This document shows positions 859 through 46,182 of a stretch of DNA of 64,000 nucleotides, piece after piece. The DNA comes from a virus (Duplodnaviria; Heunggongvirae; Uroviricota; Caudoviricetes): positions 19,415 through 83,414 of the IMG/VR virus record IMGVR_UViG_2913177423_000001; one strand, 5' to 3'. Numbering within the stretch: position 1 is the first letter of the stretch; every line of letters starts with the position of its first letter. The notes below the pieces were generated by a model. That model was given only the letters and a program-made list of their open reading frames with translations. It was not told the origin of the DNA and did not search any database. A program made the translations under genes and the position numbers.

Positions 859-877
859 GTGTGTTAGAAAAATAGCG
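859..877 (+). promoter_or_regulatory. copy of recurrent operator-like motif (GGTGTGTTAGAAAAATAG)
   Basis: matches core TGTTAGAAAA shared by about 15 intergenic sites in the window. Confidence 0.4.
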
Positions 878-1021
878 CGAAAAAGAAGGCGTCGCAGTGA
901 ATATTCTGAAACATCCCCACATGCCGCAGCTCTCAGAGAACTGGAGAAAAACCCAGATCTAATCAAAAGGAACCATGAGCATTACGAGCAGGTTCGCGTC
1001 CTGGACTGGTTGTATCGCAAT

Positions 1022-1318
1022 ATGCGCTATGTGTATGAGCATACTCACGCCACTCCAAACGGCGGTCTGCGAGGCATAAGGACGGCAATAAAGATGGTGG
1101 CAGAAGGCCAAAAGAAGGGATATCCCGATCTTTCTATAGACCTTGCTTGCGGGGGATACCACGGAATGCGCATTGAGATGAAACATGGGAGAAATCGCCT
1201 GACTCCCGAACAACTCGTCTGGATGACTCGCCTCACTGAAGCAGGTTACTACTGCTTTGAGGCGCGCAGTGCCGCTGAAGCCATAAAAGCTATCACGGAA
1301 TATGTTTGTCTTGATTAA
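1022..1318 (+). CDS. VRR-NUC-like nuclease domain protein
   Basis: segment GYPDLSIDLACGGYHGMRIEMKHGRNRLTPEQLVWM resembles VRR-NUC / PD-(D/E)xK core; start uncertain (frame open from TTG 827, first ATG at 1022). Confidence 0.5.
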   Translation: MRYVYEHTHATPNGGLRGIRTAIKMVAEGQKKGYPDLSIDLACGGYHGMRIEMKHGRNRLTPEQLVWMTRLTEAGYYCFEARSAAEAIKAITEYVCLD

Positions 1319-1332
1319 ACGGAGAAATCGTT

Positions 1333-1533
1333 TTGCGTTTACTTAACGTGGCTGAACTTATCCCTGCTGGTGCTAACGTTGTTGCTCGCCGTCGGTCCTG
1401 GCAGCAACCATTGTGTGTTGAGTTGTCGAAACACAGCAATGGAACAATAGAGGCTCGCAATATTGTTACTGGTGATAAGGTTCACATTACCCCGGAAAGT
1501 ACAGGCGCTGATGATTGGGAGTTTGTACATTGA
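1333..1533 (+). CDS. hypothetical small protein (66 aa)
   Basis: short ORF with non-ATG start in tight gene array; weak support. Confidence 0.3.
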   Translation: MRLLNVAELIPAGANVVARRRSWQQPLCVELSKHSNGTIEARNIVTGDKVHITPESTGADDWEFVH

Positions 1534-1829
1534 GCAAAAAACATTATGTGAACCTGACGTTTGCTGATGACGCCGGGAGAACGCGGAGCATAACGCTCAA
1601 CACTGCCCGCAAGGTGGTAACCGCGCCGTTAATCCGTGAAGCCCTCAGGGAGCTGGATATGGGTGAGAACTCGGCCCTGTTGTCGGTTAGCTGGCTAGGG
1701 AAAATGTCAGAGAAAGAATACGTAGACGGACTTACTCCAATAACAGCTATGAGACTGCTTTCATTGTTGCAATGGGCTATCGTGCCTTTATGCATCGTGT
1801 ATTTTATCTACCAGGCAATGACACAATAA
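1515..1829 (+). CDS. hypothetical protein with C-terminal hydrophobic segment
   Basis: ORF ends 9 nt before a strong intrinsic terminator; C-terminus LLSLLQWAIVPLCIVYFIY is TM-like; start uncertain. Confidence 0.4.
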   Translation: MGVCTLSKKHYVNLTFADDAGRTRSITLNTARKVVTAPLIREALRELDMGENSALLSVSWLGKMSEKEYVDGLTPITAMRLLSLLQWAIVPLCIVYFIYQAMTQ

Positions 1830-1837
1830 CCGCTCAA

Positions 1838-1863
1838 AAACCCGCCGACTAGCGGGTTTTTTG
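1838..1863 (+). terminator. Rho-independent terminator
   Basis: hairpin AAACCCGC-CGACTA-GCGGGTTT followed by T-run. Confidence 0.7.
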
Positions 1864-1902
1864 TTTATCACATCTTTCGCTCTTGTTCTCATGCTAATAA
1901 AA

Positions 1903-1922
1903 TGTGTTAGAAAACTAATTTT
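1903..1922 (+). promoter_or_regulatory. operator-like motif TGTGTTAGAAAACTAATTTT
   Basis: motif copy 10 nt upstream of the 1932 ORF. Confidence 0.55.
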
Positions 1923-43513: not shown

Positions 43514-43798
43514 ATGAGCGCAATAGCCACCAGCGACACACTTTGTTCCGGTCACGGAGGATTCCCGCCGCGGCTGGTTGCTGAAACCGTTCCCTGGTTC
43601 ACCGTCAACGGTAAGCCAGTTGTTGTGGATGGTGCCATGTTCCCCAGCCATACAGACGGTAACAGCACACATCCGGGATCGGCTGTATCGACGCGGGCAT
43701 GGTATTCAATAGGTGGAAAGGGAGTCGTCTGCGTAGGCGATCCGCTTTCTTGTGGTTCTGTTATCGCCAACGGCGAGGATATTTTTCAGGTCGCATAA
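43514..43798 (+). CDS. PAAR-like spike tip protein
   Basis: TVNGKPVVVDGA and IGGKGVVCVGDPLSCGSVIANGE resemble PAAR repeats. Confidence 0.5.
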   Translation: MSAIATSDTLCSGHGGFPPRLVAETVPWFTVNGKPVVVDGAMFPSHTDGNSTHPGSAVSTRAWYSIGGKGVVCVGDPLSCGSVIANGEDIFQVA

Positions 43799-44601
43799 TG
43801 CTTGATTCAATAGGTGAAGTTAAAGCCTTCCAAATTCTGTCCGGCGCTGGTGCCTCCACACCGGAATCAATATCCATAAGCCGGGCGGCTTCTTCAAAAG
43901 CTTCGTCACTCGCAAGCGACATACAGGAAATGGTTCATCCTGATAAAACCTATCCTGATTCAGTGTCTGCCTGGACGACTCAATTGCTTGGATTTTCCGA
44001 ACAACTCAATGAGGCAAGCAAGGCATCATCAGCCCTGGCTGACTCTCTTTCCCCATACACGACGCCATCAGAGCTGTTACAGATGAAGATTGGCTGGGAG
44101 TGCCACGCAAAAGGTAATGAACTGATCCCCACGCCAGCGTTCGCCCTGGTTGAGGGGATGGGGAATGTTTCCATACCGCAATCACTAACGGACGCATTGG
44201 CGGCGCTGAAACTTGACGATCTGAATACCGCCATGAACGCCATAAACGCAAAAATTGAAGCTGCCGGGAGTGCTGGGGGTGATAGTGATGGTGGACAGGC
44301 TGGTGGTGGGGCAGCTCAGGCTCCGGACATTACTCAGGATGAAATTGATGATTTACGGGAAGCTGTAACAGTAGCTGAAGTTTCACTCTCCGGGATTAAT
44401 TCAGCAAGTGAGAGTGTCGTAGCCCTTGCTGACCGCATTAAAACGTCAACAACTCAGGCCGCCAAGGGGCTAGAGAACGCTGTAGCCATCACCTTAACAG
44501 GTTCTCTACTGGGCGATGCAGTAATGAGTCCGGCAATCAGTTTAATCATGCCACAAGGCGTTATCGATGCGCTCCAAAAGAGCACCAAAAAGGAACCATA
44601 G
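43798..44601 (+). CDS. hypothetical virion-associated protein (268 aa)
   Basis: ATG overlapping PAAR-like stop (TAATG). Confidence 0.5.
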   Translation: MLDSIGEVKAFQILSGAGASTPESISISRAASSKASSLASDIQEMVHPDKTYPDSVSAWTTQLLGFSEQLNEASKASSALADSLSPYTTPSELLQMKIGWECHAKGNELIPTPAFALVEGMGNVSIPQSLTDALAALKLDDLNTAMNAINAKIEAAGSAGGDSDGGQAGGGAAQAPDITQDEIDDLREAVTVAEVSLSGINSASESVVALADRIKTSTTQAAKGLENAVAITLTGSLLGDAVMSPAISLIMPQGVIDALQKSTKKEP

Positions 44602-44656
44602 CAGCACCACTTAGGCACATAAACGGATGTAAATTGGTACATGTTTAACACCAAAA

Positions 44657-45130
44657 GTGAACCTGAAGAGGATGGTTTTGAAAAAGATAATTTTGATTGT
44701 AATTGCGCTTTTAGCCATTTCTGGAATTTACCGAACAACGACGGCAGTTATCGAACACATCAGGTATGTCCGGTCGCTTGAAGACTCAAAATCACTACTG
44801 GAAAGCACAAACAACACGCTTTCTACCGCATTACAGTTAAGTGAGAACGCTCGCTCTGCCATGCAGGCCGAAAACGAAAGAGTCAAAGCTCTGGAAAAGG
44901 AGTACCAGCGAAAAACAGCAGAACTGAATACCAAACTGATCAAACAACGGGAGGAAAGCCAGAATGAAATCACTCGTCTTGAAACTGCGTTACGCCGTGC
45001 TGGGATTAACGATGTGCGTGTGCCTGATGACGTTATCAGGATGCAGCGGGAACGGGCAAAAGCCATCAACCAGCGTGCCAGTGAAAATTACCGTAGAAGC
45101 CACCAGCAAGCCGCAGGCAAATCTGATTGA
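44657..45130 (+). CDS. i-spanin (Rz-like)
   Basis: N-terminal TM then coiled coil; o-spanin ORF embedded in its 3-prime end. Confidence 0.6.
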   Translation: MNLKRMVLKKIILIVIALLAISGIYRTTTAVIEHIRYVRSLEDSKSLLESTNNTLSTALQLSENARSAMQAENERVKALEKEYQRKTAELNTKLIKQREESQNEITRLETALRRAGINDVRVPDDVIRMQRERAKAINQRASENYRRSHQQAAGKSD

Positions 45131-45296
45131 TTACTCCCCTTGTTTAGTGCCAGAGGACACGCCAGTGCTGTTAAACAAGTATCCAACATACACAGAACAG
45201 TTATTCAGCACGATCGATGAATGCAACCAACGAAACGCACTGAATAACCAAAGGAATAGGGAGATTTGGGAAGGGAAGGGGGATCACGGCTCCTGA
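44964..45296 (+). CDS. o-spanin (Rz1-like outer-membrane lipoprotein)
   Basis: signal peptide with lipobox LSGC; begins in +1 frame inside i-spanin. Confidence 0.55.
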   Translation: MKSLVLKLRYAVLGLTMCVCLMTLSGCSGNGQKPSTSVPVKITVEATSKPQANLIDYSPCLVPEDTPVLLNKYPTYTEQLFSTIDECNQRNALNNQRNREIWEGKGDHGS

Positions 45297-45769
45297 AGCC
45301 AGATATCCTGGCTGTCAGCTTCTTCGAAACCGTGGCAGACGTTAAAGTCACTCAAACGATACTGACGCTGACGGCCTCTATTTCGCTCATGCCAATGCAT
45401 ATATCCACCAGCAAATGCCAGCGGGCAATCGCTATAGTCTATATAGCCAATACCATTCCCCAGGCGGGCCTCGCGTGCGCCAGCTTTCCAGGACAACAAA
45501 AACGAGTCACGATCTGCCAGCATGACAACAAAATCATCCGGCTCACCTATGCAGTGAAGAATCCCTGCTTTACATAACTGTTTTAGCGCCTTCGATTGGC
45601 CCAGGATGTCTTCGCCATAATACTGAAAACAATCATCAACAACAGCGGGATAACCAGCAGGGGGATTCAGGCTGGTTGGTATCGCTGACGCGATTGCCAG
45701 CATTAAGCGATATTGTGATTTTGATGGATTTGCGTGACTCATTTTTTCCTGCCTGTTCACTGTCGCCAT
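45284..45769 (-). CDS. hypothetical protein (start uncertain)
   Basis: minus-strand ORF convergent with spanins. Confidence 0.45.
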   Translation of the reverse strand: MATVNRQEKMSHANPSKSQYRLMLAIASAIPTSLNPPAGYPAVVDDCFQYYGEDILGQSKALKQLCKAGILHCIGEPDDFVVMLADRDSFLLSWKAGAREARLGNGIGYIDYSDCPLAFAGGYMHWHERNRGRQRQYRLSDFNVCHGFEEADSQDIWLQEP

Positions 45770-46149
45770 GCGTTTTTTAACTCTGGGATATCAGCCATTT
45801 CAATTAACTTTCGCAGTCCAGCACTGACTTTCCCATTGCCAATCATAGCAAGCCAGTCTCTCACAGCTTTCGGCATATAGAGCGTAGCTGTTACCGGCTC
45901 TTCAACTCTCGCGGGACATCCGCATACAGGCCATTTAATTGATTCCATAACTTCGGAGGCCGGGGTGAGGGCGGGAACATTAAGAATATCTCTACCAGAA
46001 AACTGGATGACGATTCGTTCAGCGAGGGAGAGTATCTCACTTTCAGCAAGAATTGATGCCAGTTGCGCCTCAACAAGAAAGCGGCTCGTTGTGTTCAGGG
46101 AGTGGCTTTTCGCGCCATTTTTATACGAAACAAAGATCCGATACGCCAT
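45757..46149 (-). CDS. hypothetical protein (130 aa)
   Basis: ATG 12 nt from operator-like motif. Confidence 0.45.
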   Translation of the reverse strand: MAYRIFVSYKNGAKSHSLNTTSRFLVEAQLASILAESEILSLAERIVIQFSGRDILNVPALTPASEVMESIKWPVCGCPARVEEPVTATLYMPKAVRDWLAMIGNGKVSAGLRKLIEMADIPELKNAWRQ

Positions 46150-46160
46150 AACCGTAATGA

Positions 46161-46182
46161 TTTATGTTAGAAAATTAAAATT
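46161..46182 (+). promoter_or_regulatory. operator-like motif TTTATGTTAGAAAATTAAAATT
   Basis: motif copy between divergent genes. Confidence 0.5.

Follow-up and report, generated by a model that had tools for sequence, protein, structure and literature searches.

The DNA examined here is a 64,000-nucleotide stretch of a Caudoviricetes record in IMG/VR (IMGVR_UViG_2913177423_000001, positions 19,415 to 83,414), hereafter called the window, and this report concerns a short motif dispersed over it and the relation of that motif to c1, the putative prophage repressor gene of the same element. The window is part of a D6-like phage-plasmid of the P1 family and is collinear with Escherichia phage D6 in reverse orientation at 84-95% identity (86-88.5% in the stretch around the putative repressor gene), with some accessory segments replaced relative to D6. 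D6 is a plasmid prophage related to P1, and phage-plasmids of the D6 type occur commonly in Escherichia and Salmonella; about 1,300 plasmids in PLSDB share DNA with the window, and 152 carry this type of C1. The gene names of the window were carried over from D6 by tblastn. The D6 GenBank records used were AY753669 and MF356679; neither contains an operator annotation, and text searches of the literature, aimed at the motif string and at operators of D6, returned nothing relevant, the two main D6 papers lying outside the scope of these searches. The presumed binder of the motif is encoded as follows:

10922-11959, minus strand: c1, a C1-family prophage repressor of 345 amino acids; 89% identical to the C1 of D6

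A first-pass annotation, made from the letters of the window, had proposed the product of 10922-11959 as a putative repressor, and its membership of the C1 family (PF27008, phrog_1678) agrees with that proposal. The protein is 100% identical to one of Escherichia sp. E14S1. The PF27008 (Phage_P7_repressor_C1) assignment comes only from precomputed annotations, which cover the identical protein as well as every homolog, and a Pfam profile search with the window C1 gave no match. The profile phrog_1678 was matched by both the window C1 (1e-156) and the P1 C1 (3e-140), and the two proteins share 20% identity in a pairwise BLAST alignment (E = 1e-8). The NCBIfam C1 equivalog model NF041318 gave 24.6 bits for the window C1 against a cut-off of 500, and 607.5 bits for the P1 C1. 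This score, together with the 20% identity, marks the window C1 as a distant member of the C1 family and not an equivalog of P1 C1. In a tblastn search of 50,697 phage records with the window C1, D6 was the only match, and a scan of a genome-contig collection with the same query found no relative. The relatives compared below are contigs encoding C1 homologs 79, 71, 60, 52, 48, 44 and 42% identical to the window C1.

A 19-bp weight matrix located 14 sites of the motif at 11 loci in the window, eight of them single and the others forming three 34-bp inverted pairs, with scores of 16.8-26.8 bits. The remainder of the window did not exceed 13.4 bits, a gap that is partly circular because the matrix was trained on the same sites. 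Together with a weaker copy distal to c1, the sites are as follows:

860-878, plus strand: putative operator in the 5' end of pmgM; 19.8 bits; identical in D6
1903-1921, plus strand: putative operator upstream of pmgS, after the pmgR terminator; 26.4 bits
3153-3171, plus strand: putative operator adjoining the pmgS stop codon; 26.8 bits
3309-3327, plus strand: second putative operator of the transfer RNA (tRNA) operon, in its transcribed leader; 19.9 bits
7525-7543, plus strand, and 7540-7558, minus strand: 34-bp double putative operator upstream of lpa, the late-gene activator; 16.8 and 23.4 bits
11971-11989, minus strand: c1-proximal putative operator TATGTTAGAAAACTAAATC, 11 nt upstream of the c1 ATG; 24.8 bits
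12059-12077, plus strand: c1-distal putative operator AAATTTAGAAAATTCTGCT, inverted relative to the proximal site; below the matrix threshold
13373-13391, minus strand: putative operator adjoining the stop codon of dre, the cre homolog; 24.4 bits
26089-26122, both strands (26089 plus, 26104 minus): 34-bp double putative operator between the leftward early operon (orf88 onward) and ref; 26.2 and 19.1 bits
26741-26759, minus strand: single putative operator adjoining the ref stop codon; 24.9 bits
38082-38115, both strands (38082 plus, 38097 minus): 34-bp double putative operator 11 nt upstream of hrdC-dcm-dmt; 22.3 and 23.1 bits
46163-46181, plus strand: putative operator 13 nt from the start of the leftward orf52; 26.3 bits (in D6, 22.9 bits at 54201)

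Counted with the weak c1-distal copy, these are 15 sites at 11 loci, nine single sites and three doublets. The first-pass annotation had claimed at least 15 copies, three of them as inverted pairs. The 14 matrix sites and the positionally conserved copy at 12059-12077 account for the former number, and the three 34-bp doublets found by the matrix account for the latter; its positions were broadly right, with offsets of 1-6 bp.

To compare the density of the motif with that in shuffled sequence, as had been set beforehand as a test, we searched for GTGTTAGAAAATTAAT with up to three mismatches. Twelve matches were found in the window, against 1.04 ± 1.03 in 100 dinucleotide-preserving shuffles, the largest count in any shuffle being 4. 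The repeat is therefore real, and chance is excluded as its explanation. A chance or compositional repeat without function could appeal to the individual scores, since the best matrix score per shuffle was typically 16-17 bits and once, among 30 shuffles, reached 20.0 bits, so that the weakest sites are not significant alone. The sites below 20 bits, at 860, 3309, 7525 and 26104, accordingly rest on pairing geometry and conservation. None of the 100 shuffles, however, reached the observed 12 matches, only one of the 11 loci falls within a mapped gene (P of about 5e-6), and the motif core is kept in relatives although the flanking intergenic DNA has diverged; we give a functionless repeat next to no credence. 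The intergenic test was conservative, as 24% of the window was counted as uncovered. In D6, 15 of 17 sites fall within the 10.2% of the genome annotated as intergenic. Several sites of the window adjoin the stop codon of the preceding gene. The earlier statement that all copies are intergenic holds for 14 of the 15 and fails for the site at 860, which lies in codons 12-18 of pmgM in the reading frame annotated in D6.

The three pairs share one geometry, in which two 17-mers are joined 3' to 3' into 34 bp with their TTAGA cores 21 bp apart. The invariant operator core is TGTTAGA(A/T)AA, and the 3' part (TTAAT) varies. Most substitutions between the sites of the window and those of D6 affect position 2 or the 3' half; only the weaker halves of the lpa and ref pairs carry differences in the core as well. 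Two further sequences were not counted. One, at 28669-28687 on the plus strand (ATTGTTAGTTAATTA/ATTGTTAGTTAATTACTGT), follows the ant stop codon directly and lies upstream of pmgF; it scores 13.4 bits, is identical in D6 and, having TTAGT as its core, could be a weak operator. The other, a GTTAGAAAATTA word at 12149-12167 on the minus strand that overlaps an arm of a rox-like site, is unconserved in D6 and in two of the relatives (L007 and L008).

The surroundings of the sites differ from locus to locus. Near the 860 site there is a promoter-like TTTACA-16-TATTAT at 809-836, and no ATG, GTG or TTG occurs in frame in pmgM downstream of the annotated TTG start (827); the promoter-like sequence would start transcription downstream of this TTG. 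The 1903 site is preceded by a terminator-like hairpin at 1836-1861, is kept in D6, and is found at the same place in L007 in the opposite orientation. The 3153 site, conserved in D6 and L007, lies 16 bp upstream of the -35 element of a predicted tRNA-operon promoter, TTGATT-17-TAGAAT (3187-3215), and the 3309 site lies 156 bp downstream of the 3153 site, with AAAGTGTTAGAAAA kept in D6 and L007 at similar spacing, so that this conserved promoter is bracketed by two sites. ARAGORN predicted three plus-strand tRNA genes, at 4398, 4479 and 6027. Six relatives keep the strong half of the lpa doublet, ATTAATTTTCTAAT/C, at about 90 nt before lpa.

Further along the window, the 13373 site is located upstream of the orf117-orf116-dut-orf114-isaA operon and is conserved in D6, L007, L008 and a related plasmid, L013. 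The ref/orf88 doublet, conserved in D6 at 76615-76648, overlies the -35 element and spacer of two predicted divergent promoters, read by eye as a rightward one with TATGAT just past the doublet and a leftward one with TTGATT-16-TAATAT. The 26741 site is upstream of orf86/85, isrK, the C4 RNA, icd and ant; isrK and the C4 antisense RNA were found by Rfam at 27295-27485. The hrdC doublet had been described as a perfect palindrome at 38077-38120, which proved too strong, its inverted 19-nt arms being 95% complementary; it contains a TAGAAT 22 nt before the ATG. The 46163 site lies 57 bp upstream of a late-promoter-like box of gene 23.

The region upstream of c1 was examined in an eight-way alignment, with a mean column identity of 61%. 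The invariant columns fall into four blocks, TTTTCTAA (distal site), TTTAC (-35), TA.AT (-10) and T.TTAGAAAA (proximal site), and the invariant -35 and -10 blocks suggest the following promoter:

12004-12032, minus strand: predicted c1 promoter, with -35 TTTACT, a 17-nt spacer and -10 TAGATT

The proximal block T.TTAGAAAA is invariant in eight relatives with C1 identities of 42-100%, and the distal TTTTCTAA is kept at the same position, inverted, in seven of eight. The predicted promoter thus sits between two sites whose cores are 84 bp apart, the proximal one spanning about +8 to +26 of the predicted transcript. Both c1-associated copies are upstream of c1, contrary to the first-pass view that two copies flank the repressor gene. 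In the c1-dre interval, a scan for minus-strand open reading frames (ORFs) of at least 20 amino acids, with no profile search for Coi or Lxc, found only frames of 33, 21 and 30 amino acids, none of them Coi-like. D6 carries no lxc or coi annotation, and a study of a D6-like plasmid found no Lxc homolog there (PMC6799933).

The same interval contains a rox-like recombination site, TAACTTTAGATAATTGGCATTATTTAAAGTTA, at 12162-12193, with a few differences from the rox of D6. The strongest promoter-like match of the region, TTGGCA-16-TATAAT (12174-12201), overlaps this rox-like site and faces the dre/cre homolog.

We compared the distribution of the motif with that of the C1 clade. The core TGTTAGAAAA persists at these gene positions in relatives with a C1 42-89% identical to that of the window, namely upstream of c1 (twice), upstream of lpa, after cre and on both sides of pmgS. 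In the contigs of relatives long enough for word counts, TGTTAGAAAA or GTTAGAAAA was the top word other than Chi, and it was TGTTAGAAAA in the relatives with a C1 52%, 44% and 42% identical. P1 contains 17 matches to its own operator ATTGCTCTAATAAATTT (up to three mismatches) and zero copies of TGTTAGAAAA; the window, D6, L007 and L013 contain zero matches to ATTGCTCTAATAAATTT at the same tolerance and 5-10 D6 cores. The P1-type and D6-type motifs are mutually exclusive between genomes, and the claim that the recurring sequence departs from the P1 consensus was borne out from both directions. The related claim of a distinct repressor specificity gains support from these comparisons, the window C1 being only 20% identical to that of P1 and the motif tracking the C1 clade. 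Two more distant plasmids, one labelled Acinetobacter venetianus (L014) and one from Pantoea (L015), encode a C1 about 28% identical to that of the window and contain neither the P1 nor the D6 motif. They have TTAGA-centred words of their own at the same intergenic positions, TTTAGAAtTGtaTGTG and CTTAGA(A/T)TT, recognized by eye only; since these are unlike the P1 and D6 operators, further immunity classes are suggested.

If a protein other than C1 bound the motif, it might be another regulator of the element (of HigA/Xre type, or an antirepressor) or a protein of the host, nucleoid-associated or regulatory, that recognizes AT-rich DNA. The motif is indeed AT-rich, some sites are set off from promoter hexamers by 10-20 bp, and no computed result assigns the site directly to C1. 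However, from element to element the motif varies together with the C1 clade, and it occurs in the contexts of the experimentally defined C1 operators of P1, including the promoter of the repressor itself, and the site of a host protein should also occur in P1, which has the same host. We therefore allow another binder no more than a slim chance.

Two side observations concern the window and the compared plasmids. The Chi sequence GCTGGTGG occurs 43 times in the window, against 1.7 expected, with 29 copies on the plus and 14 on the minus strand at positions throughout (2147, 3223 and 5942 to 62483, for example), and the excess is equal in the related plasmids L013-L015. L014 (CP060164.1) is a P1/D6-like phage-plasmid with blaTEM-1, blaCTX-M-3, a Tn3-family transposase and ISEc9 at 7598-15621.

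The orientation of the single sites, six of eight of which face the downstream gene, and their positions, several being 10-25 nt upstream of start codons, would also be expected of a promoter element, either an extended -10-like sequence (TGnTAGAAA) or a box for the late activator Lpa; TGTTAGAAA resembles TGnTATAAT. Against this, two of the single sites, 13373 and 26741, face back into the preceding gene in antisense orientation, L007 has the pmgS site at the same place but reversed, and c1 has separate conserved -35 and -10 elements between its two sites. The genes preceded by the TGTTAGAAAAT motif are early and immunity genes (c1, lpa, ref, ant); most late operons lack it and carry a different enriched box, AAATCACA-N8-A-N3-T. 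Five matches to this box were found, all on the plus strand, against 0.28 expected:

30576-30596, plus strand: late box upstream of mat
34817-34837, plus strand: late box upstream of gene 7
46238-46258, plus strand: late box upstream of gene 23
54871-54891, plus strand: late box upstream of pmgB/sit
62262-62282, plus strand: late box upstream of R/S

The box is probably the D6-type counterpart of the Lpa-dependent late promoter of P1; the P1 late box is AAGTGACTT, in contrast to AAATCACA in the window, and the P1 late-promoter box ACAAGTGACTT was not enriched in the window (17 matches against 16.8 expected). A promoter element as the identity of the dispersed motif is accordingly improbable, somewhat more so than another binder.

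Taken together, the comparative data make it very probable that the dispersed motif serves as operator for the C1-family prophage repressor that the element itself encodes (10922-11959, minus strand). Sites occur where a P1-type regulon would have them, at c1, lpa, ref, upstream of C4-icd-ant and at hrdC-dmt, and D6 has one at repL. We infer C1 as the binder, repression through binding, monomer stoichiometry and looping between paired sites. Binding would probably involve a C1 monomer and an asymmetric site of about 17-19 bp. The presumed promoters at or beside which the sites lie are those of c1, lpa, ref, the leftward early operon, the isrK-C4-icd-ant antirepressor operon, hrdC-dcm-dmt, the tRNA operon, the dut-isaA operon, pmgM, pmgS and orf52. 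The two sites bracketing the c1 promoter 84 bp apart would mediate autoregulation, and the tRNA-operon promoter would be held between its two sites in a similar arrangement. These spacings of 84 and 156 bp are near whole numbers of helical turns, and in P1 C1-mediated looping contributes to c1 autoregulation; cooperation between bracketing sites is therefore plausible. The ref gene and the long leftward early operon would share one central 34-bp double site, and since no operator-like site was seen within the 14.8-25.9 kb block, the 26089-26122 doublet may be its only C1 control point. In a lysogen, C1 occupancy would shut the target promoters and keep the lytic genes off, and with lpa off the late operons would stay silent. 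Because its operator sequence is unlike ATTGCTCTAATAAATTT of P1, the element would be heteroimmune to P1.

Several points weigh against the motif being the operator of C1. All of the support for it is comparative, and several sites do not overlap a recognizable sigma-70 promoter: 19 bp separate the end of the lpa doublet from the best -35 candidate downstream, and a search of the region upstream of pmgS for a sigma-70 promoter gave no convincing match. The 860 site falls within the annotated pmgM reading frame. When the P1 and D6 operator matrices were compared, the best register aligned the TTAGA cores, but the similarity was not significant (p of about 0.49 against column shuffles). Finally, with no Coi-like ORF and no Lxc homolog reported, the circuit is not a simple copy of that of P1.

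If C1 is indeed the binder, knowledge of the operator would yield a map of the C1 regulon and a means of predicting which P1-family elements are heteroimmune and hence able to coexist or superinfect. It would also provide ready-made repressor-operator parts, which should be orthogonal to those of P1, beside the widely used Dre/rox.

Every site of the window has a counterpart in D6. D6 has additional sites upstream of repL (22465) and of the first icd-ant operon, in a part of D6 outside the window; its ppp-pdcB interval, which belongs to a segment replaced in the window, holds a further site pair. The window is not collinear with D6 at 4875-5887, where the tciA/tciB region is replaced, and at about 14800-25900; in the latter block (about 14.8-25.9 kb), much of the leftward early/accessory operon is unlike that of D6.

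Tus, the E. coli replication terminus-binding protein, which as a monomer clamps an asymmetric site of roughly 21 bp, was the only PDB match of two predicted C1 structures. The predicted model of a 44%-identical homolog (P0009; predicted local distance difference test score, pLDDT, 79) gave the same four matches and nothing else; the two C1 models share most of their alignment and are thus not fully independent. The template modelling (TM) scores of the predicted structures against Tus were low, 0.23-0.32. Sequence comparison of C1 and Tus gave an hhalign probability of 17.9%, a profile search of PDB sequences returned no Tus, and PDB sequence searches found no experimental C1 structure. The operator and TerB look alike by eye (TATGTT..AACTAAA), but the resemblance was not significant (P = 0.26-0.42 against shuffled Ter). 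None of the papers searched links C1 with Tus.

A Tus-like monomer on an asymmetric site would fit the reported behaviour of C1. On the predicted models, we put forward tentatively, and with rather more doubt than confidence, that C1-family repressors may be Tus-like monomeric clamps reading long asymmetric operators, in which a shared TTAGA core is combined with clade-specific flanks that would set immunity specificity. Judging from the words found, at least four operator classes appear, P1 ATTAGAGCAAT, D6-type TGTTAGAAAAT, Acinetobacter-plasmid TTTAGAATTGTATGTG and Pantoea CTTAGA(A/T)TT, a division that we regard as possible but short of probable. If confirmed, such a fold would account for the reading of an asymmetric 17-19 bp site by a monomer and would link a prophage immunity repressor structurally to a replication terminator protein, and the flanks would provide a simple code for heteroimmunity among P1-like phage-plasmids carrying resistance genes. 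In distinction from Tus-Ter, nothing points to a role of C1 in replication-fork arrest.

The known system closest in layout is that of P1, whose C1 is described as binding 22 scattered operators that share an asymmetric consensus of 17 bp (PMC8546580). The C1 operators annotated in the P1 RefSeq record are Oc1a-e, Olpa, Oref, Omat, Oc4, OrepL, Orlf, Odmt, Obanab, O26, Oppp, OpmgRa/b, OpmgT and Ossb. The first-pass annotation had likened the motif to the scattered asymmetric operators of P1, and the likeness extends to gene contexts, as the putative operators of the window lie in those of annotated P1 operators: c1, lpa, ref, after ref, hrdC-dmt, the tRNA operon, pmgS, pmgM and the isaA operon. 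Thus, the lpa doublet corresponds to Olpa in a matching context, the ref/orf88 doublet to Oref upstream of ref, the 26741 site to Omat, which overlaps the ref stop, and to Oc4 upstream of c4, the hrdC doublet to Odmt upstream of uhr-hrdC-dmt, the tRNA-operon sites to Obanab upstream of the tRNA-tci-ban operon, the 1903 site to OpmgRa/b, the 860 site to O26 and Oppp around pmgL/pmgM, and the 13373 site to Ossb upstream of ssb-isaA. The 46163 site between orf52 and gene 23 is the only one in the window without an annotated P1 counterpart.

Both systems have a repressor of the same family (PF27008, phrog_1678) and many dispersed asymmetric sites of about 17 bp, single and as inverted doublets, and in both the sites often adjoin the stop codon of the upstream gene. 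They differ in the length of C1 (283 amino acids in P1, 345 in the window), in the operator (ATTGCTCTAATAAATTT in P1, TGTGTTAGAAAATTAAT in the window) and in doublet geometry, the P1 doublet (Oban) being 28 bp long with overlapping sites that point apart and cores 13 bp apart, whereas the window doublets are 34 bp long with sites that face each other in the TTAGA direction and cores 21 bp apart. P1 also encodes Coi just upstream of c1, and Lxc, whereas the ORF scan of the window showed no coi-like ORF upstream of c1. We infer from these comparisons that the layout and presumed function are those of the C1/operator network of P1, with a different specificity. An operator network of this kind is expected in the P1 family, and the recognition sequence of the putative operators described here is different from that of P1.

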